Below, one piece after another: positions 10,262-30,404 of a stretch of DNA of 64,000 nucleotides (positions are counted from its first letter, which is position 1; each line of letters begins with the position of its first letter). Source of the stretch: Bacteroidota bacterium (GTDB lineage: Bacteria > Bacteroidota > Bacteroidia > Chitinophagales > Chitinophagaceae). The stretch lies in NCBI GenBank assembly GCA_016183765.1, contig JACPEA010000007.1, positions 152,076 through 216,075 on the forward strand, written 5' to 3'. The position numbers and the translations under genes were made by a program. Under the pieces are notes generated by a model, which was not told the origin of the DNA, made no database searches, and worked only from the letters and a program-made list of their open reading frames with translations.

Positions 10262-10634
10262 GCTACAAACCCGAACCATCGTGGCGCTTCAGGCGCCAAG
10301 GAAAGTCCGGACAGCGCAGGGCAACCCACCGGTTAAGCGCCGGCTTTCTGCAGTAATGCAGGAACGAGAAAGTGCCACAGAAAATAACTACCACACTTCG
10401 GTGTGGAAAAGGTGAAAATGTGAGGTAAAAGCTCACGGTCTTCCGTGGTAACACGGAACACGGGTAAACCTTGGGTGCTGTAATGCCATGTATAGGATCG
10501 TTCGAGGGCGGCTCGCTCAAGCCCGTGCTTTACGGCATGGCGCGGTCCAGGGTAGGCAGCAAGATCACGGCAGTAATGCCGGGGCCAGATAAATGATGGT
10601 GTAGAAACAGAATCCGGCTTATGAGGTTTGTAGC
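10262..10634 (+). ncRNA. rnpB: RNase P RNA (type A)
   Basis: P1 helix GCTACAAACC / GGTTTGTAGC. Conserved motifs AGGAAAGTCCGG, AAAGTGCCACAGAAA, GGTAAACC and ACAGAATCCGGCTTA. Confidence 0.96.
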
Positions 10635-10635
10635 T

Positions 10636-10708
10636 TTTTTTAGCTGCGGGCTGATAGCTGTGAGCTGCGAGCCAAACAAGCTCAGCGCTCACAGCTCATC
10701 GCTCATGG
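10636..10708. repeat. GAGCTGC-type 7-mer repeats in inverted arrangement (possible terminator-like hairpin)
   Basis: tagctgcgggctgatagctgtgagctgcgagcc ... gctcagcgctcacagctcatcgctcatggct. Confidence 0.6.
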
Positions 10709-10716
10709 CTTTCCCT

Positions 10717-10724
10717 TACATTTG
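10717..10724 (+). promoter_or_regulatory. -7 promoter element whose last G lies 5 nt before the prfB ATG
   Basis: TACATTTG at 10717-10724; ATG at 10729. Confidence 0.6.
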
Positions 10725-10728
10725 CAGC

Positions 10729-11821
10729 ATGACACAGGAACAGATCAAGATTATGAGGGACCGCGTTTTGGTCCTGAGGAGGTTTCTTTGACGTCGAGAA
10801 CCGCACATACAAAGTAGAAACCGACAGACAACTCTCACTTTCGCCGGGTTTCTGGGATGATAATGCCCGGGCCACGGCCATCATGAAAGAGATCAAGGTA
10901 AATGAGTACTGGTTAAAACTATACAAGCAGGTAGATACGGCTGTAGAGGATTTTGCCGTATTGTTTGATTTCTGGAAGGGTGGCGACGCAACCGAAGAAG
11001 AAGCCAGGGAAGCCTACGATCATGCCATACAGCAGATCGAAGATGCCGAGTTCAAGAGTACCCTGAACAAACCCGAAGATGAATTACCCGCAGTACTGCA
11101 GATCAACCCCGGGGCCGGTGGTACGGAAAGCCAGGACTGGGCTGAAATGCTGTTACGGATGTACCGCATGTACGGCGAAAAGCAGGGATGGAAAGTGACC
11201 GAGATCGATTACCAGGAAGGCGATGGGGCCGGTATCAAAAGCGCCACCCTGCAGTTCGATGGTGATTTCGCTTATGGCTTTTTAAAAGCGGAAAGCGGGG
11301 TACACCGCCTGGTACGTATTTCGCCTTTCGATAGTAATGCAAGAAGGCATACCTCATTTGCATCAGTATACGTATATCCGTTGATAGATGACAGCATCGA
11401 GATCAATGTGAACCCCAGTGATCTGGAATGGGCTTTTTACCGGAGTGGTGGCAGTGGCGGACAGAACGTAAACAAAGTAGAGACCGCCGTCAGGTTAAAA
11501 CATATACCCAGTGGTTTCATTGTGGAATGTCAGCAGGCGCGTACGCAGGGTGAGAACCGTGAACTGGCGTTGAAGATGCTGAAAAGCCGGTTGTATGAAG
11601 AGGAACTGCGCAAACGGCAGGAAGCCATGAATGCGACCAATGCCAATAAAAAGAAGATCGAGTGGGGCAGCCAGATACGCAGTTATGTGTTCCATCCTTA
11701 CAAGATGATCAAAGACCACCGTACCGATTATGAAGTAGGTAATGTGGGACCTGTAATGGATGGGGAACTGGATGGATTTATTAAGGCGTATTTGATGATG
11801 GAGAAGGAGGGGGATAGTTAG
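10729..11821 (+). CDS. prfB: Peptide chain release factor 2 with programmed +1 frameshift
   Basis: ORF1 [20 protein letters not shown] ends at CTT-TGA-C (10786-10792), with an internal SD AGGAGG at 10777-10782. The +1 frame continues DVENRTY... into the 10883 ORF, which contains SPF and GGQ. Confidence 0.97.
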
Positions 11822-12270: not shown

Positions 12271-12657
12271 AGCAGGTAGGCGGCTTTGGCCTCAGTTGCA
12301 TTGGTTTGCGCCTGTGTGGTCAGTAAGGAAAAACAGAAAATACAGGATACCAGTATTTTTTTCAACATATTCTTTGGTTTGATGAGTAGGGGCGGGACAG
12401 TTTACTGCCAGCAAAAATCAGATAGTGCGTTTGCTGGTTTTCAGTTCTGTTCTGTTCTGTTCTGCCTGTTGGTCTTACGATCGGGTGAAGGATCGATGCA
12501 GATCCAGGGATCTGAGAGAGGTTCATTGAATTGGCTTCGTGGCATTTCATAGGCAGATTCGAATAGTTGGGATATAATTTCCTTAAATGTATTAATATTT
12601 CGAAATTATGCTAAGTGAGGAAGAACCTCATTTTCTGAAGCGTCTCTTTTGATGATC

Positions 12658-12798
12658 GTTCTCCGCAGAAGTCTCCCCGGAGGGGGACTCTGCGGATTTG
12701 AAGCAGTTTAAAGATCGTTTGAAACAGTGTTTGTTAAAAGTGAGTAAGTAGCCCTCCGTAAGCCGCAGAGTCCTCTTCGAGAGACGTCTGCGGAGAAC
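12658..12798. repeat. REP/REPIN-like doublet: two GC-rich hairpins in inverted orientation
   Basis: Arm 12658-12695 (GTTCTCCGCAGAAGTCTCCCCGGAGGGGGACTCTGCGG) and arm 12763-12798 (CCGCAGAGTCCTCTTCGAGAGACGTCTGCGGAGAAC) are near reverse complements, and each folds on itself. Confidence 0.65.
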
Positions 12799-12812
12799 AG
12801 CCTGCAATATTT

Positions 12813-13661
12813 TCAGCCAATTTTATTAGATTTTTCAATGTTGCACTTCTTGCACAAGATTTGTAAATTTCTATAAGTGGTCGCCCCGCCTTTTGAAAAA
12901 GGTATAATGTGATCAAACTCCAAATTTTCCTGGCTACCACATTTTACGCACCTTCCTGAATCTCTATTCCAAACTTTGTCTTTTACATCTTGTGGTATTG
13001 GCTCTCTATTCCATTCAGAATCCCCGAATTGGTTTGAAATTAGCCCCTCCTCAAGAAGTTCTTTGAATACATCTCTTTGCAATTGTTTTTTACGCTCTTT
13101 TTCTAATAATTCTTGTCTAATTTGATCTTTCTCAGACTTCAATTGTTGATCTTTTAGCTGTTCTTGATATTCTATTCTTCTTTTTTCAATTTCAATTTTG
13201 TTTTCTTCATAAAATGAGTTTACATCTGTATTAAAAAATTTAAAACCATTTTGAATTAGTTTTTCTAACTCAGCTTCTGTTTTGATTCTAACTTCTCTTG
13301 CTGCAGAACCTTGGTTTGGCCCAACTATTCCAATTTGCTCAAGGTTGTCCATGATTCTGCCAGCACGATTATACCCTAATTTCATTCTTCGTTGAATAAG
13401 GGAAGTGCTGCCCATTTGGCTTTGAATTACAAGTCTTGCTGCGTCTTCTAGTAAAGGATCAAATTCGGCAGAAACGTTTTCATTCATTTCTTTTTCGCCT
13501 TTAGCGAAATAATCAATTAAATCATTTTTCTCTTGTTCTGATAAATTGACTTTTTTTTCACTAGGTTCTTTTGGTGATTCTTCTGAAATTAGATTAGTAG
13601 TATTGCTGGAACTTGGTTGTAAAGTTTTTTTTCCTAAAATTCGGTTTAGTAAGTTCATCAT
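12813..13661 (-). CDS. FtsK gamma (winged-helix) domain + coiled coil + HNH endonuclease fusion
   Basis: DPLLEDAARLVIQSQMGSTSLIQRRMKLGYNRAGRIMDNLEQIGIVGP is an FtsK-gamma signature. CVKCGSQENLEFDHIIPFSKGG...NLQILCKKCNIEK is an HNH signature. Confidence 0.85.
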   Translation of the reverse strand: MMNLLNRILGKKTLQPSSSNTTNLISEESPKEPSEKKVNLSEQEKNDLIDYFAKGEKEMNENVSAEFDPLLEDAARLVIQSQMGSTSLIQRRMKLGYNRAGRIMDNLEQIGIVGPNQGSAAREVRIKTEAELEKLIQNGFKFFNTDVNSFYEENKIEIEKRRIEYQEQLKDQQLKSEKDQIRQELLEKERKKQLQRDVFKELLEEGLISNQFGDSEWNREPIPQDVKDKVWNRDSGRCVKCGSQENLEFDHIIPFSKGGATTYRNLQILCKKCNIEKSNKIG

Positions 13662-13678
13662 ACAAGTATTTTAAAATA

Positions 13679-13848
13679 GTAGGCAACCTTCTTGGCTTTG
13701 CGAAGGGCGGGGGAGATTTTCCTTCTGCTGACTTGGCCACTAAAGCTCGATTAATAAAAGCCAATTTACTGAAGCACGGTCAGAAATCCAACAGCCGATA
13801 GCCAAGTACAAATGCCAACTTTTGCCAAGCAGCATGTTAGGCGTAGTT
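13679..13848 (-). other. attC-like recombination site A (170 bp)
   Basis: Read on the minus strand it runs AACTACGCCTAAC ... GTTGCCTAC, with inner arms CTTGGC/GCCAAG. It shares AAAGCCAATTTACTGAAGC and GGTCAGAAATCCAA with site C. Confidence 0.75.
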
Positions 13849-14803
13849 AGTCTGAGACAAACCTTGAAAAAAACTCATTACTCTTCTCTTGACTTTCAAA
13901 AGATGCAAGGTAGTCCAAGGCTATTTGTTCGCTATAATAAGCTGCCAATATATTTGTCATTCTCCTAAAAGCTTCAGGATGTGATTCGCTTTTTGAATTA
14001 CTCACAGTACCCATAATTGCAAAAAATGTACTGAGTACAGGGACAAAATTATTTTTTTCCATTTCGGGAAATAAATTGAATGCAGCTTTTTCAAAAATGG
14101 GATATGCAGAAAGGTCTGCTTTATATTCAATTTCGTGACTTCTGTCTTCTATGAATGCTTCGAATGGATGGTCTGCAAGGTTGGCAAAATTAGCTTCTTC
14201 ATCAAAATCGCCATTAATAAAATGACCAATTTCATGGCAAATAGTGAATAATTCTGAAAGCATTATCGAAACCATGTGAGACAAATATTTTGAATCCAAC
14301 TTTACTAATGCTCCAATAGGGAAATGATATTTTTTGTAGTTATCGAATAGTTCGTTCATGAATTTAATATAGTCATCGCTTGTAAGAGTCTTAATATCTC
14401 CTCTATTACAAAACCTCACAATTTTTGGATTATTCGTCGCATGAGCTAGTTTACCATGTTTATTAAGTAGTATAAATAATCCTTCATAAATTAAAACAGC
14501 ATATTTGCCTGTTGAGCTCTTGGAACAAGTTGCGTTAAAACTTCCATTTCGAACGAAACCAATAGCTAAAGAACTTTCAATTTTTTCTTTTAAGTCTGGT
14601 GAGACTGTATTTAGTATTGCATTTAGGTATTGATTTAGAAGAAATTTCATCTGATACATCCCATCTAATTGGTCAGGAGAAAGATGAACTACATCCTGGC
14701 TGTTAAGTTTTGTGAACTCAGGATCTTTTTCAAAAGGCAAATCATACACTTTCGTACAAATTTGTTGAAGATATTCAAGATATTCTTGAGCTGTGTCAAA
14801 CAT
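13847..14803 (-). CDS. HExxH zinc metallopeptidase, Lit / Peptidase U49-like
   Basis: ICHEIGHF followed by EYKADLSA and HP...R motifs. No signal peptide. Family assignment by motif only. Confidence 0.55.
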   Translation of the reverse strand: MFDTAQEYLEYLQQICTKVYDLPFEKDPEFTKLNSQDVVHLSPDQLDGMYQMKFLLNQYLNAILNTVSPDLKEKIESSLAIGFVRNGSFNATCSKSSTGKYAVLIYEGLFILLNKHGKLAHATNNPKIVRFCNRGDIKTLTSDDYIKFMNELFDNYKKYHFPIGALVKLDSKYLSHMVSIMLSELFTICHEIGHFINGDFDEEANFANLADHPFEAFIEDRSHEIEYKADLSAYPIFEKAAFNLFPEMEKNNFVPVLSTFFAIMGTVSNSKSESHPEAFRRMTNILAAYYSEQIALDYLASFESQEKSNEFFSRFVSD

Positions 14804-15024: not shown

Positions 15025-16887
15025 TCACAAAGGGAAGAAACCTTGTCGGCCTCTTGTTTTTTCGTTAGTAAAATGTATATAGTTTATCTTTGATTTTAAT
15101 TCTTCTCTTGGTTCTTTATTGTCAAGGATTATTATTTGTCTATCATCTAAAGTATCCGCTAAGTCTTTAAAGAAAGCATCCTGCATATCTCTTGAAATTT
15201 CTTCTAGTTCGCCTTGCTCCTTTCCATGATAAGTTGTCAATGGAGAATCAATTATTATATTTCTTGGGTGTGCTAAATTATTACTTACACAATAGTCCAT
15301 AAGCCCAATTACAAAGGCAGAATAGGTAATGGCTCGAATTCCTTTTCCATGTGCATTTCTGTTTTTCTGATTTATAACGAAGTCAAATATGCTATAATCT
15401 GTATTGAAATTTACAGTAGCTACATTTGGATATTTCCAATTAGTGAGAATTACTTTTATTGTATCACATAAACCTTGAAGAATTGTATATTTTATGCCAT
15501 CAGATTGCTCTCCAACTTTAGGTTTCCTTGCAAGTTCGATTTCAAGTTGATTTCTTTGGCCATAATAGTTTGCAAGTTGTGTTTTGTAAAGTTCTTGCTC
15601 TTTTATTAGGGAAAGCTCAATTAACAACGCATCAATCTCCTCCTTTGTAGAAGATTTTATTGGTTCTATATTATTTTGAATTTCACTTTGAACAATTTGG
15701 TATTGTCGTTTGAGAGAAATTAATTCGTTATCCCTTTTGGATTTGTCGGAATTTAACTGAGCTAATGTGCTTTCTAAGTCAGAGAGTTTGATTTTAATTT
15801 TATCAATCTCCTTTTGAATTGAATCAATTACGCTTGAACTTTTTTTATCTTCTTCAATTATGCAATCGTAGTGGCCTTTGTCCATGTCACCACCACACAA
15901 AGGACACTTAATTGTTGTCAATTGAGAAAAGTAATCTTCTCCTTCTGTAATAAATGCTAATCGCTTTATATCACTATTGTAATGCTCTTGAAGTAAAACA
16001 AATCTGCTTCTTAATTCTTCGTGAAGAATATTTTTGGAATCCAGTTCACTAATTGAATTATAGAGTTGTTTCTTTTCTTTGGTTAAGGTTTCAAGTTGTA
16101 CGCTGGACTCTTGCAAGACAAGCGATAGCTTTTCTATTTTGGCTTGGAGTTGTTTTTGCTTTTCATTGGTTTTTTCCTTTTCTAGTATCAAAATCTTTTC
16201 AGAAAGGTCTTTAATTAAAGAATCTACAAATTCAAGTTTGCCCTTTATTCTACTGTGATAAATTTTAGCTTCCTCAACTTGTTCAAGTTCCTTTGCATCT
16301 TTTCCAGTAAGTAAAATTTCAAGAATGGATTGCTCTTGTATTTGCTGATTGAATTGTCCTGATGAATAAACGGGGGATTTTTCGGTAATGATTCTTTCCT
16401 CGTCAATCAAAGTTAATCTTGCTATATCTCTATAACTTATTTCTCTTTTTGCATTGTTCTTATTAATTCTAACATACTTTTCATCATAGCCAGAAAGTTG
16501 AAGAAGAAAACTGGATATGTTATCTTTTGAACCGTTAACATGTTGCGACTTTAATTCTCTTGCTGTGCCTTGTGTTTGGAACATGTCAATCTCTACTTCT
16601 TTTAATTTAAAAGTTCCGCCTTGCATATTTCTTGAAAGCGTGAATGTTTGTCCAGTGTAGGTTTTAATTTCAAGCAAAATATTTGAATAACCAATTGCTT
16701 CAGGTATTGCTTTGGGTGGATTGCTGCCACCAAGCATATAATTTATGCAAGCGAATACATAGGATTTACCAGTATCGGATAGACCTGAGATAACATTAAA
16801 ACCTTTTTCAAAAGTCAACTTTGCTGGCTTACTCGTTAGACCAGTTACGTGCAAGTTGCTAATGTAGAATCCGAAATTATTGTTCAT
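15025..16887 (-). CDS. lmuB: Lamassu LmuB, SMC/Rad50-like ABC ATPase
   Basis: Walker A GLSDTGKS, coiled coils with a CPLC zinc-hook motif, AHGKG signature and Walker B IIIDSP. 620 aa, the short form. Confidence 0.85.
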   Translation of the reverse strand: MNNNFGFYISNLHVTGLTSKPAKLTFEKGFNVISGLSDTGKSYVFACINYMLGGSNPPKAIPEAIGYSNILLEIKTYTGQTFTLSRNMQGGTFKLKEVEIDMFQTQGTARELKSQHVNGSKDNISSFLLQLSGYDEKYVRINKNNAKREISYRDIARLTLIDEERIITEKSPVYSSGQFNQQIQEQSILEILLTGKDAKELEQVEEAKIYHSRIKGKLEFVDSLIKDLSEKILILEKEKTNEKQKQLQAKIEKLSLVLQESSVQLETLTKEKKQLYNSISELDSKNILHEELRSRFVLLQEHYNSDIKRLAFITEGEDYFSQLTTIKCPLCGGDMDKGHYDCIIEEDKKSSSVIDSIQKEIDKIKIKLSDLESTLAQLNSDKSKRDNELISLKRQYQIVQSEIQNNIEPIKSSTKEEIDALLIELSLIKEQELYKTQLANYYGQRNQLEIELARKPKVGEQSDGIKYTILQGLCDTIKVILTNWKYPNVATVNFNTDYSIFDFVINQKNRNAHGKGIRAITYSAFVIGLMDYCVSNNLAHPRNIIIDSPLTTYHGKEQGELEEISRDMQDAFFKDLADTLDDRQIIILDNKEPREELKSKINYIHFTNEKTRGRQGFFPL

Positions 16888-17386
16888 TTTCTATTCCTCT
16901 TAAAAGTGATTCATTTGAAAATTCACCTCCCCAAACATCCAAATTGTTCTTAATAAAGAGAGAGAGTGTTTCATCGGAGTATGGTTTGAACTTATTGACA
17001 AGCCAAGAAGAAATTTCTTTCAAACTCATGGCGTATTCGGATTTATTGTATTCAAGAAACGGCTTTGTAAGTTCAGTTGCCTTGTATGTGATGCCTGTTG
17101 AATCAAAAACAGAATCTACTAATTGCTTACTGTGCATTAATGTCAGTCCTTTTTTTACCAATTCTCTTTTTACTAAAATTTCGGTTGTTCTGTGTGGTAT
17201 ACTTGGGTGAATACTTTTCGGTCCGCCTGGAACATCACTTGAATGAACTAGTATGTAGTCGTAATACACAAGTCGTTGTAAATCACAACCGTCAGGTTGT
17301 AATTCATTCAATAGATATAAAACTCTTAACCCGATTTCAAGGGGTGAATTGAAAACGCTTGTATTTCTTTCTTCAAATAGATTCAT
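16877..17386 (-). CDS. lmuC: Lamassu LmuC / ABC three-component system middle component
   Basis: FNSPLEIGLR...DLQRLVYYDYILVHS resembles ABC-3C middle components. It overlaps both neighbouring genes. Confidence 0.8.
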   Translation of the reverse strand: MNLFEERNTSVFNSPLEIGLRVLYLLNELQPDGCDLQRLVYYDYILVHSSDVPGGPKSIHPSIPHRTTEILVKRELVKKGLTLMHSKQLVDSVFDSTGITYKATELTKPFLEYNKSEYAMSLKEISSWLVNKFKPYSDETLSLFIKNNLDVWGGEFSNESLLRGIENEQ

Positions 17387-18471
17387 GACTTAACCCAAGT
17401 TAGTTTGTTTTCATTAGCAAGGTGATGGCAAATTCCGATTTTGTCTTGTGTCTTAGAAACTGAAAGCAATGCATTACTTTGAATGTTTAATGCAACTGCA
17501 GTTGCAGTTGTTTTTTTTACATTTTCATATCCACTAGAATGTGTTTGATTTGAAATGTCAACTACTCCATGAAATATTTCTTCTTTCAATTCAGCGAAGC
17601 AATTATTCCCAGTAGGCAAGCTGTCTCTGCTGAACTCATTCAATGCTTCAGCCCAATAAAAGCACTCTCGTTGCCGGTTGAAGTGGTCAAATAATTCCGT
17701 ATGTGAATTTAATTCTGTTATAGTGTGTACATCTATTTTGAGATGGTCGGAATATGCTTCAAATAATTGTTCAACGTATCTAATTGACATTTCAGCTTCA
17801 TGGATAGGATTAATTCTTGGCATCATTCTCCTTTTCAAACCTCCACCAAATCTTGCTGCATAATAACTGGTTTGTTTATGTTGCTCAATTAGTTCTTGAG
17901 GGTCTAAAAATGTGAAAATTGAAAAGTCAATCATTTCAATGTGTGCTTTTAGTTCAGACGACAGCGGAATGTCAACTTTCGTAGTTATACCTCCTTTGCA
18001 GTGTTTGTCCCATTCGATATATAATTGTTTTTTTAGTTCTTCTGGCTTTGTAAGATAATCACCAACTGTTGGGCCGACTCCCTTTGGTGCCACGAAATAG
18101 TATTTATTGGGTAACGAATAATCTTTTTTAAATGTGTAGTAACAAAGTTTTCCCAATTCTAACCAAATATCCCCTGGCATTAAGGCATTGCTATAGTGTT
18201 TACATTGGTAATTGTCCCATTTTCCACTTTCATCAATAATTGCCACAACGTCTCTTCCTTTATCCTTAGCTCCACCTGTTCTCCAAACCTTTATGTATTT
18301 TTTCTCAAAGTAGCCGGCAACCCATTCTCTAACTATGTCTTCAAACTCATCCTCAGATACAATCTTAAGCTTGTCAATTGCAGGAATGGGGGTTCCAATC
18401 AAAATATCCTGATTTGTCAGGAGTCCAATAGACTTGGGTCTTTCTGGTAATATTAGTTCTGCGTCAGCCAA
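17383..18471 (-). CDS. lmuA: Lamassu LmuA effector: Mrr/Cap4-like PD-(D/E)xK nuclease + ABC-3C C-terminal domain
   Basis: FEDIVREW...GGAKDKGRDVVA...YQCKHY nuclease motifs; C-terminal DKIGICHHLANE. TTG start. Confidence 0.8.
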   Translation of the reverse strand: MADAELILPERPKSIGLLTNQDILIGTPIPAIDKLKIVSEDEFEDIVREWVAGYFEKKYIKVWRTGGAKDKGRDVVAIIDESGKWDNYQCKHYSNALMPGDIWLELGKLCYYTFKKDYSLPNKYYFVAPKGVGPTVGDYLTKPEELKKQLYIEWDKHCKGGITTKVDIPLSSELKAHIEMIDFSIFTFLDPQELIEQHKQTSYYAARFGGGLKRRMMPRINPIHEAEMSIRYVEQLFEAYSDHLKIDVHTITELNSHTELFDHFNRQRECFYWAEALNEFSRDSLPTGNNCFAELKEEIFHGVVDISNQTHSSGYENVKKTTATAVALNIQSNALLSVSKTQDKIGICHHLANENKLTWVKS

Positions 18472-18702: not shown

Positions 18703-19965
18703 CTAGCTAATCACTTTTTCAATATCCTCTTTCCAGGTTTTGAATCCATTTTGTAAGTCTGCGTAATTATGGATAACTCTTTTGAAAGTATCTTCTCTTC
18801 TATTTATATATTCATTTTTTCCGTCTCTGATTATTTCATTGATGATTTTGTCTGTATTTGTCATTACTTTTTTTAAATCTTCTACATTAGCACTCACTGT
18901 CCAAATATAGGTTGCTTCTTCAGTGTCAAGTGTCTCCCAGACAATATGAAACTTTTCAATGCTACTTAAAAGAAATACAAATGAAAATGGTTTGTGAACA
19001 AAGCGTAGCTTTTGTATATGAGCTTGATGTTTACTTGAGAGATATCTTAGGTGTTTGTAATGTTTAGTTGTAGATTTTTCAAGAAGATTTTCAAAAAAGT
19101 CATTTTCAGTCTTAAATATTTTATTTCCATTTAAATTTTCAGTTGCCATGGTTTCAAGGTACTCATCCATGGTAAATAACTGTTTATCACCTAATAAATC
19201 CTTTTTTCTTATCGACTTCACAAAAGCAAATTTAACTTCTTCAATAAGAGTCTTGTCTATTTTCTCTATTTCTTCGGACTTGGCATTTTGTGAAATAATT
19301 CTGCCATCTAATGTTATAATAGATATAGCTACTTGAATTTTCTTTGTTTTTAATACACTTGAAAAATAATTTTTGATTGCGTCATATTCTTCTATGATGT
19401 TATCATTTATTATTTCAAATTCAATTTGTTTTTTAAAATGTTGTATCTTCTTTTCAAAAGCCACTTTTCCAGAAAGAAAGCTTACATGTTTGATTGGAAT
19501 TGAAAATGATTCATAGTAAGTTTCTTTCTTTGGTTCTCTTTGAATTTTTAGTTGAAGTTCTGTTGAGGTGTCTTTACTATCTTCTATTGATTTTTGTTGC
19601 AAAATCTTTATAGGATTGTTGCTATTTGAATTCGGTAATGGCTTGCTTGTGTTTATACTAAAAGACTGCAAAAGCCCTCTTGTTTCGATGCTTTTAAATT
19701 TTACTTTCTCTATTGTAATTAATGTTTCGGCTAGTTTGATTTGACTATTTGAAAATTTTGTTTCGCCTACGTCATATGATAAAACTTCTACGATTATTGT
19801 ACACTCATTTTCTATATAGTCAAGTACTCTTACTGTCCAGAATGCAGGTGCTTTTAATTTTATTGGAAAATCAGAAATTTGAACTTGCTCAAAATCTAAT
19901 GCAATCTCTTCTGTAAGAAAAGCTAAGTCGTCTTTAAACAAAATATTTAGCTCTTGTCCTTTCAT
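18703..19965 (-). CDS. Hypothetical cytoplasmic protein (420 aa), first cassette of the array
   Basis: Intact AT-rich ORF. The C-terminus KLRFVHKPFSFVFLL...WETLDTEEATYIW resembles a domain I recall from Bacteroidota DEAD/DEAH helicases, but no helicase motifs are present here. Confidence 0.7.
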   Translation of the reverse strand: MKGQELNILFKDDLAFLTEEIALDFEQVQISDFPIKLKAPAFWTVRVLDYIENECTIIVEVLSYDVGETKFSNSQIKLAETLITIEKVKFKSIETRGLLQSFSINTSKPLPNSNSNNPIKILQQKSIEDSKDTSTELQLKIQREPKKETYYESFSIPIKHVSFLSGKVAFEKKIQHFKKQIEFEIINDNIIEEYDAIKNYFSSVLKTKKIQVAISIITLDGRIISQNAKSEEIEKIDKTLIEEVKFAFVKSIRKKDLLGDKQLFTMDEYLETMATENLNGNKIFKTENDFFENLLEKSTTKHYKHLRYLSSKHQAHIQKLRFVHKPFSFVFLLSSIEKFHIVWETLDTEEATYIWTVSANVEDLKKVMTNTDKIINEIIRDGKNEYINRREDTFKRVIHNYADLQNGFKTWKEDIEKVIS

Positions 19966-20512: not shown

Positions 20513-21313
20513 ATGAAACGATATAGTGTCAATCTCATTCTCTGGAGACACGACCCTGTCGGAGAGCTCAAAGATCAGTACCCAATTTACCTGAAAATTG
20601 TCGTTGAGGGAAAGAAATCTTACATCTCCACCGGAGTCGTTGTAAAGGCTATACAGTGGGATAGCAGTAATCAGTGCGTGGTGGCTCACCCGACCGCCCG
20701 GCTGCTTAACATGGATCTCACCAATCGCAAAAGCCAGGCTTTGCAGCGCATCATTAATTTGGAGCTGGGTGGAAAGGACTTCTCAGCCTTATCGCTGAAG
20801 CAGCAGCTGATAGGAACCAATCCATCCAACATCTTTGACTTCATCGATCGCTACTATGCTGAGGTGCGGGACAAACGTTCTACAGGTACTCTGATTCAGT
20901 ATCGCAAGCATCGAAACACACTCAAAGCCTTTCATGGTTCTGATGATCTTACCTTCGAACAGATAACTCCGGATTACCTGCTGAAGTTTGAGACACACCT
21001 GCGGAAGGAGATGAAGAACAATTACATCAACTCCATATTCAGGATGTACAAGGCCTTCTTCAATGCAGCCATCAAACGTGGTGTCACTACCAACTATCCT
21101 CTGCAGGGTGCAAATCCTGAAGACTGGGGTAAGCCTACAGCATTCGCTGCTGCCGGCGTACAGTACAGCGTCTATCTGCTCACCGGTGAGACCAGCGAAA
21201 GCTCTCCGACTCCGGTTGAAAAGCATGTAGACAAGAGCACTATCATCCTGGCTATTCCTTCCAATGGAGCAGCCAACGCTGATGTAGCTGTAAAAGGTAT
21301 CCTTGCCCTGTAA
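20513..21313 (+). pseudogene. Chimeric ORF: tyrosine integrase N-terminus (arm-binding + SAM-like core-binding domains) fused in frame at about 21100 to an unrelated 70 aa C-terminus, probably from a capsid-module gene
   Basis: YPIYLKIVVEGKKSYISTG (Bacteroidota arm-binding domain) and LTFEQITPDYLLKFETHL...FFNAAIKRG (SAM-like domain) stop at TNYP. There are no R-H-R-Y catalytic residues. The tail LQGANPEDWGK...TIILAIP is not integrase-like. Confidence 0.8.
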
Positions 21314-21398: not shown

Positions 21399-22040
21399 AT
21401 GACTCCAAACGAAATCACCACGCTGATCGCCTCAAACCTGGATAAGGAACTGGATATGCCTTTTAAACTCCAACTGATGGAGCGGGTGAAATACTGGCGC
21501 AGCCGGTTACTGGTCAATACCGTAAACAAGGATCCCTTCCAGCGACGGTTCTTCAAACAGACCCTGTATCTGACCATGGAGCCTTCTTCCAAGATTCGCT
21601 GTGCATCGCTGGTGAACATACCAGTGTCGGCCACACAGGTGGCAGTGCCGCAGGAGGTTATCGCCGGAAGCGTACAGTTCGACTACGTAGGTGGCGCAGA
21701 CGGTTCGTCTCCCTTTCAGCAACTGCAGGCCGGTACAGAGCTTTATCTCAGTAGCGGTAAATTCTACCCTCTCTGCGGACACTACGAATTCATCAACCGT
21801 TTCATAGTTACAGACAAGGAGCGATTACCGCTCATTCGCATTGACGCAATATTCGATGATCCTCAGTTGATACAGCAATTGAGTGCCGCTTGCACAGGAC
21901 AGACCTGCGACACGTGGAACCAGGAGTTTCCGGTAAACAATCAGATCATGCAACTGATCGTGCAGTCCATACTGCAGGTCGATTACAACCGTGCTGAGCG
22001 CGAGGATACTCCACAGATAGAAGTAAATAACACTAAATGA
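21399..22040 (+). CDS. crAss-like conserved virion structural protein (neck/ring or portal-vertex family)
   Basis: Resembles the conserved genes that follow the capsid genes in crAss-like phages (FDYVG..DG..PF; IRIDAIFDDP). Supported by position. Confidence 0.6.
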   Translation: MTPNEITTLIASNLDKELDMPFKLQLMERVKYWRSRLLVNTVNKDPFQRRFFKQTLYLTMEPSSKIRCASLVNIPVSATQVAVPQEVIAGSVQFDYVGGADGSSPFQQLQAGTELYLSSGKFYPLCGHYEFINRFIVTDKERLPLIRIDAIFDDPQLIQQLSAACTGQTCDTWNQEFPVNNQIMQLIVQSILQVDYNRAEREDTPQIEVNNTK

Positions 22041-22041
22041 T

Positions 22042-22656
22042 ATGGCAAAACAGATACTAAAACCAAGGATGATCTACTTGCGTGAGATATACACTCAATT
22101 CGCGCAGAGTGAACTGGATAAACATCCTGAGTGGTGGGGAAAATATGAACAGAAGGTCAAGCTTAAAAACTGCTACATCTACGCCAAGGAGCGGGATCAT
22201 GTGGTACTGAAGATGAGCTGGTACAGCTTCAAGGAGATAGTAGAAAGCTACTTCCACAAAGCAAAGGCCGCTATCATCCAGGGTGAAACACTTCGCATCG
22301 GGGCCAGTGTCGGTAAGATACGAGCCATACGTGTAGAGCGGAATTTCTCCAACCCGGTGATAGACTGGGTGAAGACCTACACCAACAAGGAGTTCGATGA
22401 GAAGGGTCACCTGATCAAACGCTACTATACGGACGAAGACTGGTGCAGAATAGAGTGGGAGAAATTCGGTGTACTCAGCAATGAGAGCATCTACAACTTT
22501 TACCCGGCCACCCGTAACATGGCCACCAATAAAGGGTTCAAAGCAGAGTTTGTACAAGCCTTGCGAAAAGACCCGCTGTTGAAGTTTAAATACAAGTTCT
22601 ACCCATACGTGAAGGTAGAACGCAAACAGACCAAAGATGAACTACAACCTCTGTAG
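22042..22656 (+). CDS. crAss-like IHF/HU-like DNA-binding protein
   Basis: FKEIVESYFHKAKAAIIQGETLRIGASVGKIRAIRVER resembles the HU/IHF fold. It sits just before the tail genes, as in crAss-like phages. Confidence 0.6.
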   Translation: MAKQILKPRMIYLREIYTQFAQSELDKHPEWWGKYEQKVKLKNCYIYAKERDHVVLKMSWYSFKEIVESYFHKAKAAIIQGETLRIGASVGKIRAIRVERNFSNPVIDWVKTYTNKEFDEKGHLIKRYYTDEDWCRIEWEKFGVLSNESIYNFYPATRNMATNKGFKAEFVQALRKDPLLKFKYKFYPYVKVERKQTKDELQPL

Positions 22657-23428
22657 CATGCGCGAAGTGATCGGAAGGATCATCCGTAACACACGGTTAC
22701 AGGATTCTTCCTTCATTGAAAGTATGCATGACTGGATATTCGAAGCTGTCTCCATGATGAAGACCAAGCAGACACTGCAGGGTGACTGGGAGGAGGTCAA
22801 CGTGGTGTTTCACAAAGGACAGTGGCCATGCGGACTGGTGTATGTCGACGCGGTCGAGTACAATGGTAACCGCCTGGTTCATGGAGGTAGCGTACGGCCG
22901 GCGGAGAAAGAGACGGCCTATCTCAATCCAGCGAATGGAGACATCTTCTTCTCAGAGGTGAACAAAGTGCCTACCACAGAGAACCACAGCATCTATGTTA
23001 CCAAGATGACCGAGGCCAGAAGCCTGCCTGCGGGTAAAGATTACTACACCACTGATACACCCGGTTACATTACCACTTCATTCGCTGATGGTAAAGTGAC
23101 GGTGTATTTCAGGCGTTACCCGGTGGATAAGGATGGCATACCGATGATCCCTGACAATGAGAACTTCAAGCAGGCCATCTACTGGTACGTACGAGCCATG
23201 ATGATCGGTGCAGGTTACCCCGATAAGGCATTCTCCTACGAGCAGTGCTTTGAAAAGTTTGAGAAACTCTATGCGCCCAGGGCTGTGGCTGAGATCCGGT
23301 ATCCGACACCGGACGAGATGGAGCACAGGGTCAACACGTTTGTACGATTCATGCCACCTCAGAACTATTACGACAACTTCTTCCGGAACGATTTCGGAGA
23401 AGGTATTTATGATACCAAAGTCTGGTAA
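22637..23428 (+). CDS. Tail tubular / ring protein (P22 gp4-like family of crAss-like phages)
   Basis: REVIGRIIRN...DWIFEA start; YITTSFADGKVTVYFRRYPVDKDGIPMIPDNENFKQAIYWYV; directly precedes the stabilization gene. Confidence 0.7.
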   Translation: MNYNLCSMREVIGRIIRNTRLQDSSFIESMHDWIFEAVSMMKTKQTLQGDWEEVNVVFHKGQWPCGLVYVDAVEYNGNRLVHGGSVRPAEKETAYLNPANGDIFFSEVNKVPTTENHSIYVTKMTEARSLPAGKDYYTTDTPGYITTSFADGKVTVYFRRYPVDKDGIPMIPDNENFKQAIYWYVRAMMIGAGYPDKAFSYEQCFEKFEKLYAPRAVAEIRYPTPDEMEHRVNTFVRFMPPQNYYDNFFRNDFGEGIYDTKVW

Positions 23429-23431
23429 GTA

Positions 23432-26400
23432 ATGCAAAACTTTAAACGCCTCTCCCGTGACACTCGTCTTCAGGAGCAACCTGAGGGAACCATACCGTTT
23501 GGTAAGAACGGGATCGTTAACTACGTGAAGAACGCAGTGTACAACGAGCCCGGCTTTATCCCATCGGCCAGCGTCATTCCTTACAAGTACAACGGGGTGA
23601 TAGAGACGGATAAGTATCCCATTATCTTCAGTACCAACGATGTCAATTCAGCGATCGGCTTCTACAATCCTGACGAGGATACTTATATTCCCATCCTCAA
23701 TGATGCAACCCTGCCATTCAAGTTGGGCTTTAAGGTAGCAAACTTCATCACCGGTCAGGTACAGCGTAACTACAAAGGGGAATTGGTAGGCGCTTTCACA
23801 GATAAGGTGCTGAACCCCTTCTACCTGAACTTTGACAATCCCCAGGTCACTTCGCTGCAGGATATGCTGCTGTTCCCGGGCACCCAATCCCCAACAGTGA
23901 ACATCGCGCTCACCAGCGGGGGAACTCTGTTGCCGGGAGCCTACTATGTAGCTGTCAAGCTTCTCAAGAATGACGGTACTGAGACGGCCTACCTGACGGT
24001 GAGTGCCCCACAGATCGTGAGCGGTACCACCAATACAGTGACCGATAAGGCCATCCAGGTATCAGTAAGCCAGATAGATACGGAATACGAACTGGTACAG
24101 CTGGCCATCATCCGCAAAACCAACGGAGTGACCTCTGTTGTACAGCTGGCCAGCCCCATCACCGCTTCTGCGAATCTGACCTATATCTATACCGGCAATG
24201 AGCTCAGTGAAGACATTACACTGGAAGAGGTACTGATCGCCCCGGCACATTACACCAGGGTGGAGACGATCGGCCAGTTGAACGATGCACTCTACATCAC
24301 GGGACTGGATTCAGAACCGGAAGAGCGCTTACAGAAATACGTGAACAAGATCCGCCTCAAATGGCACAGCAGTCTGCTGACCATCAGTCCTGCCAGCGAT
24401 GATCTGAAGAATAGCAAGGAGAAGACCTTCATGCACGATGAGGTGGGTGCTTTCTATATCCGATTCCGGAAGACATCCGGCGGCTTCACCAAGAACTTCC
24501 ATATACCTGGGCCAGCGCTAACCAGCGACCAGAAGTCTCCCTCTACAGTAGCTACTGCTGAGGGACTGGTGGCCAGCAAGTTCCAGGTGGATGATATCAT
24601 CACTGTCTTTGATGCTGCTTCTAAAAGTGGCTACTGCAGTGGGTATGCGAATGCCTCTGAAACCTATCCTAATACCGACGATTACAACTCCAGTGCTGTG
24701 GGCGGGGAAGATCTCCGCAACCAACCTGTAAGGCATCACCGATTCCCATCGATCCAGTGGTGCAAGGATAACCTCTACAGCGGTAATCCTGCCTACGGTA
24801 AAACGGCCCTGGATAAGCTGGGTATATCAGTGGAGAATATCGTACTGCCCAATAAGTACGCTTCAGCTTTCAACGGGTATGAGATACTGTATGCAAAGCG
24901 CAATATCGCCAATTCGACTGTACTGGGGCAGAGTCTCCTGCTGTTTGGCGCCAGGGCCAAGGGACAGACCGAATTCTCTCCGGCCAACTTCTACTCGACC
25001 GGCGGTAACTTTCACTCCGAGATCAACTACAAGAGCGGTGGTGATACTCTGTATGTAGACCAGAGCATCTTCCACCTGCATCCTTTCGATACACTATACA
25101 ACAGACCGGCTGTAAAGCCAGACTATCTTTCGCTGCAGTTACAGCTGAAGCGGGAACCGCTGACAACAACACCCAATCAGAACAGCGGTAGTTTCATAGA
25201 GGACGGCGGCCCGGATCAGGATCGCGGTACCGTGTTTCTGTTCGATTACATTACCAGCGGACTGACCCCCACCAGCCCAACCAAGAAGCTGAAAGCTGTC
25301 AAGGATACCCAGTACGTACCTAATCACGTGGAGATCGGTAAGTGGAAGAACAAGGGTATTGAGACCTTCTTCGGCGGACGGATAACCAATCCTGAGGCAT
25401 TGATAGCCAGCGGCAATGTGGACACCAACCAGGTATGGACAGATCGTGGCCGGCGTAAAGGAGTCACTACAGAGACCACCTTTCTGACCAACATGAAAGC
25501 CATTCGCTCCAATGTATACCTGCCCTTTACCGGTCAATCGCTGGTAAGAGCTGGAGTGTCCCCCAGCCTGACAGCGTCTCCCGTATTGTACGGCGGCGAC
25601 AGCTTCATCAGCGACTACACGTTCCACACATACGGCTCCTGGTCATTTGCCTACGGAGGTGACAACGAGAGCCAGAATAAGACAGGTACCATCACCGTGC
25701 GTAGGTTTATCTGTGAGACGGCCAGTAATCTGTACAGCCGTTTTGAGGACGCTGCAAATCCTTACAGCCGGTATTATCCCGTCAGTACCTTGGCCCCGGG
25801 AGACCCGAGCAACTACACCAGAACCTGGATCCGCTCCAGCGACCCTAATCAGTTTGGATACAGCAAGGACAGTAATGCACTGGATGACCTGATATCCACC
25901 TCTATATTCGACACCTACGTGGAAAGCGTGACATCGCACCCGTACCGGATACACCGTGGCGGTAAACTCAGCCGACAGACCAAGTTCAGAAGCTGGAAGA
26001 CCTTCCTGCCGCTGGATTACTACGAGATGCAGAAGAACATGGGCCGACCCGTCAACCTGGAAGGTATGGATGACCGGTTGCTGATCCACTGTGAGAACGC
26101 GCTGTTCCTTACACAGGATAAGGCCAAGCTGGAGAGCGACCTGATCGGTGTTACACTGGGCTCAGGAGATATTTTCCGCTTTGAGCCTCAGGAAGGACTG
26201 AGCGCCAAACTCGGTTATGCCGGTACCCAACATCAACTGGCCTGTGTGCGTACACCGTTTGGTTATGTATTCATAGACTCTGACCAGGGACAGTTGTTTC
26301 TGTACAAAGGAACACCGAAGCTGATCAATAACTGGATGAACACTTTCTTCCAGCAGTATCTCAGACTGAAGGAAATCAACGTCTTCAATGGTAATGGGTA

Positions 26401-28768: not shown

Positions 28769-29526
28769 CACCAGGATGCACCAACCCGGCAGCAGCGAAT
28801 TACAATCCTGCGGCGGATACAGAAGATTACAGCTGTATATACCTCAAACGGTATGACGGGACTTGTTATGCCTTTCAGGATGTACCACCCAGCGAGATCG
28901 AAGACAAGTCTTTCACGCTCTCGTTTTCGCTGGAAGAGATGGACTGGGTGATGTTCCATGACTACATCCCGGACTTCTACTTCAGTACCCGCAACAGGCT
29001 GTTCAACCTGAAAGGCAATAAGATATACAAGCATAACGCCGGAGCTCCCGGTGTATACCATAGTTCAACACCGAAGTCCTTTTTCATTGACATGGTATTC
29101 GCTGACAAGCAGGAGATGCTCCTGCGCAGTGTTGAGTGGATCACAGAGGTGATAGGTAACAACGTGGAGACCGAGATGTCGACGCTGACCCACATCACCA
29201 TCTGGAATGCTCAGCAGTGTACCGGCCGTATCGCACTGTCCAGCGTGTTTGATCAGCTGCAGTACAGCACACACAGAAAGACCCAGGGAAAGTGGTCTTT
29301 CAACCATATCCGGGACATGGTCAAGACCCGTGGAACTACCTTCCTGCTTGATATATTTAACAATTTTGCAGTGATTAGTAACTCAATTTCACAGACTAAG
29401 CCATGGTATGAAAAAGCCCTGTTATCCGATAACTACTTTGTGATACGCTTCGAATTCGATAACACCAGCGGTAAACAGATCTTCTTCCATGGTGCTGATA
29501 TTAATGATAAACTTACCCCACGATGA
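28765..29526 (+). CDS. C-terminal part of the muzzle/stabilization protein encoded as a separate gene
   Basis: ATGA overlap with the upstream stop (the ORF track starts at TTG 28759). It opens with a GCTNPAAANYNPAA..DYSC motif, then FTLSFS...WVMFHDYIPDFYFSTRNRLF...IYKHN, which resembles the C-terminal part of crAss-like stabilization proteins. Confidence 0.7.
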   Translation: MTPGCTNPAAANYNPAADTEDYSCIYLKRYDGTCYAFQDVPPSEIEDKSFTLSFSLEEMDWVMFHDYIPDFYFSTRNRLFNLKGNKIYKHNAGAPGVYHSSTPKSFFIDMVFADKQEMLLRSVEWITEVIGNNVETEMSTLTHITIWNAQQCTGRIALSSVFDQLQYSTHRKTQGKWSFNHIRDMVKTRGTTFLLDIFNNFAVISNSISQTKPWYEKALLSDNYFVIRFEFDNTSGKQIFFHGADINDKLTPR

Positions 29527-30404
29527 GCCTCATTGCACGCTATAAAAAATACGGATTCGGCAGTTCGATGACCCCCGATCAGATGCAGGCGGCTACAACT
29601 GCAGGTGCTACAGCCGGCCTTGTGGGCCAGGTAGCCGAAGCTGCTTTTCCTCCCAACAGGTACGGACGTACAGCTACGGCTGGAAATGTACTGGGGGATG
29701 CCGGTAAGTTCGGCGCTATGGGGGCACAGGTGGCCGGACCATGGGGAGCTGTGGCTGGTGCCGGTATCGGACTGGTGACCGGGCTGTTCCGCAGTGGAGC
29801 ACAGAAGAAAGCAGAGCAGGAAGCAAAGATGCATGAGAGTTGGGCTATGCAGCAGAATGATCAGGCCAACGCCGCTGCCCGGATCGGTGCAGACCCTTCG
29901 CTTGTGAAGGGTAACCTGGCAGCCGGATACTACGCTGCTGGAGGTGAGTTGAAAGATTCCACAACAGTGAAAGTACCTAAGATCGATATGGCTGAAGAAC
30001 TGCGTGCGATCAATGCCGGGAAAACAGGATTTACTGCAGCGCAACGCGACAGTATCGCAAGTACATTCAATAAAGATGCTTACGCTCAGCACAAAAATGG
30101 TTCCGCAACACCGCTCTCCTCTACAGCCATCCAGTTCAATGGGCCGTCACACGAGAACGGTGGTATCCAGATCCCAGGGAAGAACGCTGAGGTAGAAGGT
30201 GGAGAAACCAGCACAGGCGACTATGTGTTCTCTGAACGCTTAGGATTCGCTCAACTGCATAAACCTATCGCCCGTGCCATCGGCAAGCTGGAACAGAAGC
30301 CGGCTTCTCCGGAGCGTATCAACAGCTTGAAACTGCTGAAAGGAGAGGAGGGCAAACTGAAAGTATTACAGGAATACACCAAGCAACGGCTTGGATTAAA
30401 CTGA
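29523..30404 (+). CDS. crAss-like virion cargo/ejection protein
   Basis: Gly/Ala-rich membrane-like segment (GAQVAGPWGAVAGAGIGLVTGLF) and the motif GPSHENGGI...EVEGGET...YVFSERL typical of crAss-like cargo genes. Confidence 0.7.
   Translation: MSLIARYKKYGFGSSMTPDQMQAATTAGATAGLVGQVAEAAFPPNRYGRTATAGNVLGDAGKFGAMGAQVAGPWGAVAGAGIGLVTGLFRSGAQKKAEQEAKMHESWAMQQNDQANAAARIGADPSLVKGNLAAGYYAAGGELKDSTTVKVPKIDMAEELRAINAGKTGFTAAQRDSIASTFNKDAYAQHKNGSATPLSSTAIQFNGPSHENGGIQIPGKNAEVEGGETSTGDYVFSERLGFAQLHKPIARAIGKLEQKPASPERINSLKLLKGEEGKLKVLQEYTKQRLGLN

Follow-up and report, generated by a model that had tools for sequence, protein, structure and literature searches.

A predicted mobile HNH nuclease whose FtsK gamma domain resembles the FtsK of its host lineage

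Introduction

The gamma domain of the DNA translocase FtsK is the reader of the motifs that mark replication polarity along a chromosome, the FtsK orienting polar sequences (KOPS). Why should such a domain be found without its motor, fused to an HNH nuclease and encoded by a small gene in a genomic island? The question is raised by an open reading frame (ORF) at positions 12813..13661, minus strand, of a 64-kb stretch of DNA from a Chitinophagaceae genome (contig JACPEA010000007.1, positions 152,076 to 216,075), which is referred to here as the window. A preliminary description of this gene had proposed a sequence-guided nuclease carried as a cassette, and had put it forward as a candidate defence effector given its neighbours. 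Stand-alone HNH nucleases with an added DNA reader are known, but we know of none that uses an FtsK gamma domain. The combination is visible in databases, where a JGI label reads "Ftsk gamma domain/HNH endonuclease", and a literature search found no study of a protein containing both domains.

Here we describe the protein, its homologues and their genomic surroundings. Sequence comparison indicates that the gamma domain of this mobile gene has been matched repeatedly to the FtsK of its host lineage, which is a new observation.

Domain organisation of the protein

The gene and the parts of its product are as follows.

12813..13661, minus strand: FtsK-gamma/HNH gene, 282 amino acids (ORF list and Pfam), stop codon at 12813-12815.
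13617..13661, minus strand: N-terminal motif M-x-F-x-K-x-(I/L)-F-x-K, residues 1-15, conserved in 69 homologues and followed by a disordered linker to about residue 40.
13284..13466, minus strand: FtsK gamma winged helix, residues 66-126, with recognition helix GSTSLIQRRMKLGYNRAGRI (Pfam and superposition on 2VE9).
13050..13277, minus strand: helical stalk, residues 129-204, consisting of helices 129-153 and a 50-residue charged helix 155-204 (AlphaFold2; predicted local distance difference test (pLDDT) score about 90).
12816..13004, minus strand: zinc-ribbon HNH domain, residues 220-282, CxxC...DH...N...CxxC-N (Pfam HNH/HNH_5 and invariant residues).

An in-frame second ATG yields a 281-residue version, which is the form found in databases. 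The gamma domain is a full one, as the preliminary description had it. Pfam FtsK_gamma (PF09397) matches residues 66-126 with an expectation value (E) of 6.3e-25 and 87.1 bits against a cut-off of 30.6, and the GYNRAGRI sequence within it occupies residues 96-103. An AlphaFold2 model built from the 69 homologues has a mean pLDDT of 76, with values above 90 in the gamma domain and below 50 at the N-terminus. It lays the protein out as a disordered segment (1-36), a short helix (42-53), the winged helix (71-125), helices 129-153, the long helix 155-204 and the HNH domain (220-282). Foldseek superposes the gamma model on the KOPS-bound Pseudomonas aeruginosa gamma domain 2VE9 with a template modelling (TM) score of 0.90 and a root-mean-square deviation of 1.3 Å, and on 2J5P with a TM score of 0.84. 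By sequence, the nearest solved structures for this part are the FtsK gamma domains 2VE8, 2VE9 and 2J5P.

The absence of a motor ATPase also holds, since Pfam finds neither FtsK_SpoIIIE (PF01580) nor PF17854 or PF13491 in the 282-residue protein. Several homologues are named as FtsK/SpoIIIE DNA translocases; this identity was rejected, there being no match to the RecA-like alpha/beta motor or to the N-terminal membrane domain. Matches in NCBIfam are limited to the last 60 residues of FtsK and to the HNH domains of IscB and Cas9d.

At the C-terminus, Pfam HNH (residues 238-280, E 2.6e-13) and HNH_5 (E 2.1e-11) together match residues 238-281, and the nearest solved sequences are the HNH domains of Cas9/IscB and 4H9D. 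The zinc ligands C238, C241, C270 and C273 and the catalytic residues D250-H251, N265 and N274 are invariant across the 69 homologues, in agreement with the zinc-binding HNH domain described earlier. On these residues the HNH (beta-beta-alpha-Me) active site is complete, with a D-H general base, a structural Asn, a metal-ligand Asn/His and both CxxC zinc-ligand pairs, and metal-dependent DNA cleavage is predicted. The segment between the two domains had been called a charged coiled coil. A long helix with a charged N-terminal half is indeed found at 155-204, the first half being almost all charged, while in the per-column profile the second half carries hydrophobic residues at a spacing of 3-4 residues; a coiled coil in this helix is possible.

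Every gamma-bearing member opens with the motif M-x-F-x-K-x-(I/L)-F-x-K, which is followed by a low-complexity linker and a short helix. The hydrophobic moment of the N-terminus is 0.53, compared with 0.40 +/- 0.13 in shuffled sequences, and transmembrane segments stand in for the motif in some relatives. From this we infer that the motif is an amphipathic membrane-binding helix. Other relatives have a different middle domain, without annotation, in the place of gamma, and Pfam gives no informative match in the N-terminal domains of HNH-only relatives. The overall build suggests a nuclease that is held at the membrane and whose targeting module can be exchanged.

The HNH core LEFDHIIPxSKGGxxTxxNLQxLCxxCNxxKxN is also found, 60-75% identical, in proteins of about 180-480 amino acids from Omnitrophota, Dehalococcoidia, Actinomycetota, Planctomycetota and other phyla (loci L035-L081). 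The N-terminal regions of these proteins are diverse and without annotation, with one TerB-like and one TPR-like match, and the proteins can be grouped by sequence as a broad "variable head plus HNH" class.

The gamma domain follows the FtsK of the host lineage

All 16 carrier genomes examined (16/16) contain exactly two gamma domains, one in the real FtsK and one in the nuclease. In the window genome the real FtsK is a protein of 860 amino acids encoded on contig C16, and its gamma domain is 84% identical to that of the nuclease over 57 amino acids, the GSTSLIQRRMKLGYNRAGR stretch and the recognition helix being identical. Across the carriers the identity between nuclease gamma and own-genome FtsK gamma ranges from 0.58 to 0.95. 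Lineage-specific residues are common to both gammas within a genome; GSASLLQRKLKLGYNRAGRL occurs in both gammas of two Flavobacteriales genomes, and the Symbiothrix pair is 95% identical.

A maximum-likelihood tree of 33 gammas over 57 columns shows the same pattern, with nuclease gammas interleaving with FtsK gammas by taxon and three mixed clades strongly supported. A tree constrained to unite all nuclease gammas in a single clade is worse by 91 log-likelihood units (approximately unbiased test, p = 8e-6). The own-genome FtsK gamma has a mean rank of 2.1 of 17, where 8.3 is expected, and 0 of 10,000 permutations reach the observed value. For 9 of 15 genomes, the FtsK of the same genome is a closer match to the nuclease gamma than is any nuclease gamma from elsewhere.

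Could this similarity simply be due to a recent gene conversion involving the resident ftsK? Where residues are identical, their third codon positions agree in only 33-65% of cases, so that synonymous sites are nearly saturated. In the window genome the agreement is 0.33, and the guanine-cytosine (GC) content at third positions is 0.28 in the nuclease gamma and 0.61 in the FtsK gamma. Because of this low agreement and difference in composition the similarity cannot come from recent conversion in the present host, and that explanation was rejected for the window genome. The similarity rather reflects older capture or conversion inside the individual orders, after which purifying selection was strong and the gene spread by transfer. 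As read from the tree, gamma has been re-sampled from, or homogenised with, the ftsK of the host lineage at least three or four times. Repeated re-sampling together with purifying selection argues that the match to the host gamma is functionally required.

In one Chitinophagaceae metagenome-assembled genome (CANGOX010000007.1; loci L095/L007), the gamma-HNH gene sits directly between ftsK and lolA, two genes that normally adjoin. Its gamma shares the first 41 residues with that of the upstream FtsK, and the nucleotide identity of 0.81 is the highest of all pairs. The chance of such a placement among about 30 loci is estimated at roughly 1-2%, and the copy suggests insertion or exchange by recombination through the gamma sequence.

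The identity of the recognition helix with that of host FtsK, and the tracking of the host lineage by gamma in 15 genomes, strengthen the earlier suggestion that this domain may act as a KOPS-type reader. Residues N1296, R1300 and E1303 of Escherichia coli FtsK, the positions that read KOPS according to mutagenesis, correspond to N, R and D in both the nuclease and the host FtsK. The nuclease probably reads motifs of the host's own chromosome, or recognises its partners, and from the host-matched gamma it follows that it should depend on something host-specific, either the KOPS code or an Xer partner. A comparison of 7- and 8-mers between leading and lagging strands of the 3.67-Mb genome gave GGTGGTGG (0.70) and GGGTGGGG (54:9) as the best candidates and nothing KOPS-like above 90%. 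As no octamer is more than 90% polar, we propose no target motif.

Distribution and genomic context

Approximately 3,200 database proteins match the nuclease, and most of the best 120 listed contain a full gamma and an HNH domain. Homologues are named "DNA translocase FtsK", "HNH endonuclease" or "McrA". The gene occurs in 0 of 60 relatives, 36 of them congeners, which match only through their genuine FtsK, and in at least 1 of 400 other evenly drawn Bacteroidota genomes (six candidates scored per genome). It is horizontally mobile and rare in Bacteroidota.

Ten loci, including the window, were annotated with Pfam. The window copy lies in an island with a Lamassu defence system. The closest homologue (about 70-74% identity) lies beside a TIR_2 gene in an integrative element with an integrase and a rolling-circle Rep. 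One copy is in a prophage-like region of Niabella, one in a transposase/NERD region, one in a reverse-transcriptase region and one in a region with Fic and ParD genes. The remaining four are single inserts among housekeeping genes, between genes for a fatty acid hydroxylase and a GNAT protein, between gltB and a hydrolase gene, between katG and pckA, and between ftsK and lolA. Full-length copies are also found in phages, between the portal and major head genes in one (L157) and upstream of the tape measure gene in another (L153). The gamma domain is present in about 4 of 62 viral-contig matches.

No conserved partner gene emerged from an all-versus-all BLAST of the six neighbours on either side in 24 loci, and the neighbour of the gene in the window, which encodes a 318-residue protein, is unrelated to the neighbour of the gamma-HNH gene in locus L217. 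Linkage to Lamassu was considered and rejected, because Lamassu is beside the gene only in the window island and is absent from all other loci checked. To measure the wider surroundings, 119 neighbours from 20 loci were compared with 119 random proteins of the same genomes using PADLOC (E <= 1e-10). The neighbours matched 39 families and the control 13, a coarse family count with no per-locus statistic; the families include Type I restriction-modification, SspH, AbiJ, PbeA, Type IV restriction endonuclease and mad3/mad8. The enrichment for defence families appears real but is coarse, and the association of the gene with defence and mobile-element regions is moderate.

The preliminary description had rested its defence proposal on the neighbours of the gene and had asked for a survey of defence-gene context. 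That survey gives the excess just described, with 4 of 10 contexts being housekeeping ones. The proposal keeps its footing in the low-GC cassette island by Lamassu, in the TIR gene beside the closest homologue and in the PADLOC count; its argument from particular neighbours fails, as there is no conserved neighbour and no relative is linked to Lamassu.

Flanking repeats and the cassette

The gene in the window is bounded by two repeat elements.

13662..13846, minus strand: attC-like B/D-type repeat between the gene for the 318-residue protein and the gamma-HNH gene; its 5' box is CTACGCCTAAC, and its 3' box GTTGCCTAC opens the HNH cassette.
12645..12812, minus strand: E-type imperfect palindrome GTTCTCCGCAGACGTCTC...GAGACTTCTGCGGAGAAC downstream of the gene (inverted repeats I2 and I8), preceded by AGGC.

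Read along the coding strand, each of the intergenic elements B, C and D goes from AAC to GTT, and the opening box of a unit is complementary to its closing box. For the 318-residue unit the boxes are GTTAGGCGTA...TACGCCTAAC (10/10 complementary), and for the Lamassu unit GTTATCGGC...GCCGATAAC (13/15 when extended). The HNH unit starts with GTTGCCT in the window, which is complementary to AGGCAAC, the closing box of the homologous L217 unit. The window's own closing element gives way after AGGC to a different palindrome, and the AGGC before this E-type palindrome is a remnant of the expected closing box AGGCAAC. Arrays on contigs C12 and C15, as well as locus L094, contain repeats related to this E-type palindrome.

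The B/D-type element is about 175 nucleotides long, with CTACnGnnTAAC at its 5' end and GTTnnnn at its 3' end, and the genome has at least 8 copies of it, which adjoin further accessory genes of low GC, a YoeB/YefM-like pair among them. The unrelated locus L217 holds copies of it as well, one after the TIR gene and one directly after the stop codon of the gamma-HNH gene. The latter begins with TTACAGGCAAC, the complement of the opening G|TTGCCT of the window cassette.

Folded as DNA, the E-type element gives z scores of -3.9 and -5.4, the C and E elements together spanning -2.9 to -5.4. The B/D-type element, folded as a single strand, is no more stable than shuffled sequences on either strand (z about 0 to -1). 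A search of the genome for the integron integrase IntI found none, the best score against TIGR02249 being 79 bits against a cut-off of 265, with XerC/D-like proteins as the only matches. A tyrosine recombinase does lie nearby; it is truncated and belongs to the Bacteroidota Arm-DNA-bind_5 type. A strict ungapped detector of AAC...GTT arms returned nothing, not even the window's own elements, and is too rigid for this purpose.

That the gene travels as a single-gene cassette in an integron-like, non-classical system is largely supported. The cassette of the preliminary description thus stands as far as the attC-like boxes and the L217 copy with its complementary box are concerned, with the reservation that there is no IntI and that the B/D hairpin is not stable. 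The repeats look like those of an integron-like cassette system that would use a recombinase other than IntI. Like integron cassettes and clusters of attC sites lacking integron-integrases (CALIN), the window has co-oriented, promoter-poor units split by AAC...GTT elements with complementary boxes, repeat families that are homogeneous as in sedentary chromosomal integrons, and cargo rich in defence and toxin-antitoxin genes. Unlike integron cassettes, the window elements are about 175 nucleotides long, those of B/D type form no significantly stable hairpin, and the genome lacks IntI.

B/D-type (about 175 nucleotides) and E-type repeats also separate low-GC accessory genes in several other arrays of this genome, at 181-191 kb on contig C12, 139-142 kb on C11, 485-487 and 699-703 kb on C15 and 425-427 kb on C1. 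The cargo of these arrays includes the YoeB/YefM-like pair and an AAA ATPase. In other Bacteroidota genomes, attC-like repeats were seen at L217:8687-8840, L217:10890-11060 and L094:12692-12883.

The island and its flanks

The gamma-HNH gene comes last in a low-GC island (0.29-0.36, the flanks being at about 0.50) whose genes are all on the minus strand. The order is the 420-residue protein, Lamassu LmuA/LmuC/LmuB, the 318-residue HExxH protein and the gamma-HNH gene.

18703-19965, minus strand: 420-residue protein, no family match, single-gene cassette.
15025-18471, minus strand: complete Lamassu system (PADLOC).
17383-18471, minus strand: LmuA, with an Mrr-like N-terminus and ABC-3C CTD6 (PADLOC E 2.6e-109).
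16877-17386, minus strand: LmuC/MC2 (PADLOC E 2.9e-53).
15025-16887, minus strand: LmuB (PADLOC E 1.2e-161).
13847-14803, minus strand: 318-residue protein with a CHEIGHF (HExxH) motif, faint IrrE/M78 and CapP-like matches, single-gene cassette.

The identical 282-residue protein, with this gene order around it, is encoded on 11 metagenome contigs, which represent the same strain-level element. To the left of the island are RNase P RNA and prfB, and homology with 40 congeners stops within about 15 nucleotides of the stop codon of prfB. At the right side of the island the closest relative has undergone rearrangement, so synteny fixes no right edge.

10263-10637, plus strand: RNase P RNA, class A (220 bits), directly upstream of prfB.
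10621-11821, plus strand: prfB, apparently split into a short ORF (10621-10791) and a main ORF that starts at 10883 and is in the +1 frame.
20513-21313, plus strand: truncated tyrosine integrase with Arm-DNA-bind_5 and SAM_5 only, aligning to residues 19-206 of a 408-residue integrase.
21399-30404, plus strand: phage structural-type genes, directly after the truncated integrase.
22637-23428, plus strand: CrAss_Ring_1 protein, a phage structural-type gene.
23432-28768, plus strand: DUF5977 protein of 1778 amino acids, a phage structural-type gene.

A prfB split into the +1 frame is the well-known programmed frameshift arrangement. The right flank may be a crAss-like prophage remnant in the chromosome. 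Rfam searches of the whole window at gathering thresholds gave RNase P RNA and one tRNA and nothing else.

Proposed function and alternatives

The account that we prefer, tentatively and at a little under an even chance, is that the protein is a stand-alone mobile nuclease of the inter-genome conflict class, acting in defence or exclusion and aimed by its host-matched gamma. The short basic-hydrophobic N-terminal helix, for which some relatives have transmembrane segments, would tether the protein to the inner membrane through a flexible linker. The gamma winged helix would bind double-stranded DNA at the KOPS-like motifs that host FtsK reads, as should be expected from a recognition helix that it shares with the host-lineage FtsK. 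The long charged helical stalk may space or oligomerise the protein, and the zinc-ribbon HNH domain would then nick or cut DNA close by, independently of the adjacent Lamassu. Candidate ways in which a host chromosome rich in KOPS could be spared are regulation, membrane confinement, and the use of KOPS as a protective self mark.

Several points weigh against this account. A nuclease aimed at host KOPS-like motifs should be toxic to its own host, and no immunity gene was seen. The PADLOC enrichment is a family count of the coarse kind described above, 4 of the 10 annotated contexts are ordinary housekeeping neighbourhoods, and other copies sit within phage structural modules. Against PADLOC 2.0 the nuclease itself gives weak matches that are confined to HNH (PtuB, PDC-M01B and REase_II), the best being REase_II with E 3.8e-6 on the HNH core alone, and there is no family-level match. 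A literature search found no paper that ties FtsK gamma plus HNH to defence activity. The N-terminal hydrophobic moment is just about one standard deviation above that of shuffles, and the membrane tether and the oligomer are steps that we infer.

One specific form of the idea, which we think improbable, is that the polarity code of the host is itself read as the self mark, such that DNA at the membrane lacking KOPS-like motifs is cut and host DNA spared. This may be likened to Chi, which protects DNA from RecBCD. As the code differs between lineages, a mobile gene using it must re-sample gamma from the ftsK of each new host, and the pattern of the gamma tree would fit the re-sampling expected.

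The strongest of the other explanations, unlikely but deserving serious attention, is that the protein is a weapon of a phage or mobile element, in which gamma reads the abundant KOPS-like motifs of the host and the nuclease cuts the host chromosome. It could do so at take-over, as an addiction toxin, or as a weapon between elements, the small genome of the element being without the motif. Such a weapon would need just this kind of host-matched gamma, and phages readily pick up fragments of host genes. The full-length copies in the genuine phages L157 and L153, the prophage-like copy of Niabella and the low GC of the gene are in keeping with this. However, intact copies persist in chromosomes among housekeeping genes without an immunity partner, and gamma occurs in so few (about 4 of 62) of the viral-contig matches. 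Carriage by phages does not in itself separate defence from weapon, because defence genes are also commonly phage-borne; the copies inside phage structural modules keep a phage or selfish role as a live rival.

A selfish, free-standing homing-type HNH endonuclease, which would spread by cutting close to the places where it inserts and for which gamma would be no more than a DNA-binding module, is a less likely alternative still. It would explain the sporadic distribution, the lack of a partner gene, the single inserts between conserved housekeeping genes (katG and pckA, gltB and its neighbour, ftsK and lolA) and the copies in phage structural modules, a typical place for homing HNH genes. The flanking genes and insertion sites nevertheless differ in every lineage, with no recurrent target site, and the attC-like bounds here and in L217 represent a different route of mobility. 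Homing moreover needs a rare target that is destroyed by the insertion, whereas a host-type KOPS reader would have many targets, and it leaves purifying selection for a host-matched gamma unexplained.

We give a similarly low probability to the possibility that gamma serves in protein recognition as an FtsK mimic, either as a decoy for an FtsK-targeting phage factor, as the preliminary description had considered, or as a binder of XerD-type recombinases; in either role it would recruit or set off the nuclease at Xer/dif-type complexes or upon infection. FtsK gamma does bind XerD (Protein Data Bank entry 5DCF). A copied host-specific surface would fit the tracking of host gamma at the protein level with saturated synonymous sites, and the N-terminal anchor, linker and gamma together resemble a motor-less FtsK. 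The strong conservation of the DNA-recognition helix, among the highest in the protein, fits DNA reading equally well, though, and there is no linkage to recombinase genes. No phage factor directed at FtsK gamma is known to us, and literature searches gave none.

It is very improbable that the protein is an accessory effector or regulator of Lamassu or of the 318-residue HExxH protein. The genes are on the same strand, closely spaced and in one island, and the arrangement is identical on the 11 contigs, but those are one strain-level element. None of about 30 other loci (0) has Lamassu or a homologue of the 318-residue protein adjoining the gene, each unit is set apart by its own attC-like element, and Lamassu is complete by itself. 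A housekeeping factor for segregation or dimer resolution, as the name "DNA translocase FtsK" implies and as the near identity of its gamma to that of host FtsK and the copy directly between ftsK and lolA might suggest, is effectively refuted by the distribution of the gene, which is absent from 60 of 60 relatives and was not found in 399 of 400 other sampled Bacteroidota genomes, and is also at odds with the missing motor domain, the low GC and the island location.

Comparison with known systems

The closest known relative of the reader is the gamma domain of FtsK/SpoIIIE itself (PF09397; 2VE9, 2J5P, 5DCF), with which it shares fold, sequence family and the conserved recognition helix GYNRAGR. 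The nuclease differs from FtsK in lacking the alpha/beta motor and the four-transmembrane anchor, in its fusion to HNH and in its location on a mobile cassette. In logic it resembles McrA and other Type IV HNH enzymes and to FokI-type IIS enzymes, in which one polypeptide combines a DNA reader, a spacer and a cleavage module. As in restriction-type HNH enzymes there is no methyltransferase and the distribution is sporadic and mobile, with weak PADLOC matches to the HNH of REase_II and mREase_IV. Its predicted reader is, however, a host-copied reader of polarity motifs and not one of modified bases or foreign sites.

The HNH core also aligns weakly with Septu PtuB and with PDC-M01B (E 9e-5 to 4e-4), in the latter case together with part of the preceding helix. 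Those proteins act with partners (PtuA ATPase and PDC-M01A, respectively), whereas the nuclease has no conserved partner and scores far below family level. Identity as Septu (PtuAB) was rejected, PtuB matching at E 9e-5 or worse on the HNH core and no conserved ATPase neighbour being present.

Among phage proteins, gp27 of the temperate Bacteroides phage BS-TP3 ("HNH endonuclease") is 56% identical over the C-terminal helix and HNH, and its gene lies in the lysogeny/accessory region beside an S24 repressor. Its N-terminal half is a different domain without annotation, and there is no gamma. Use of gamma by mobile elements outside a translocase is seen in actinophage gamma proteins and in polyvalent proteins, which have no HNH. 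Polyvalent proteins have been described to contain the winged helix-turn-helix of FtsK as one of their rare DNA-binding domains (PMC5512222). Cluster J phages encode motor-bearing FtsK homologues with gammas unlike those of their hosts (PMC3706429), the opposite of the host-matched gamma of the nuclease.

An actinophage example is gp53 of Gordonia phage Bowser (L216:1697-2743), a protein of 348 amino acids in which Pfam finds only a C-terminal FtsK gamma, at residues 271-329. More than 100 actinophage records of motor-less gamma proteins were seen, under labels as varied as "RusA-like resolvase", "FtsK-like DNA translocase" and "sliding clamp".

Significance

The attC-like elements that flank the gene suggest that Bacteroidota have an integron-like cassette system without a classical IntI. 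If the nuclease is a defence protein, it would represent a rule for distinguishing self from non-self that is based on the motifs of chromosome architecture, while as a phage weapon it would offer a means of aiming a nuclease at host DNA only. The gamma-HNH family may also provide a practical handle for finding the KOPS motifs of Bacteroidota.

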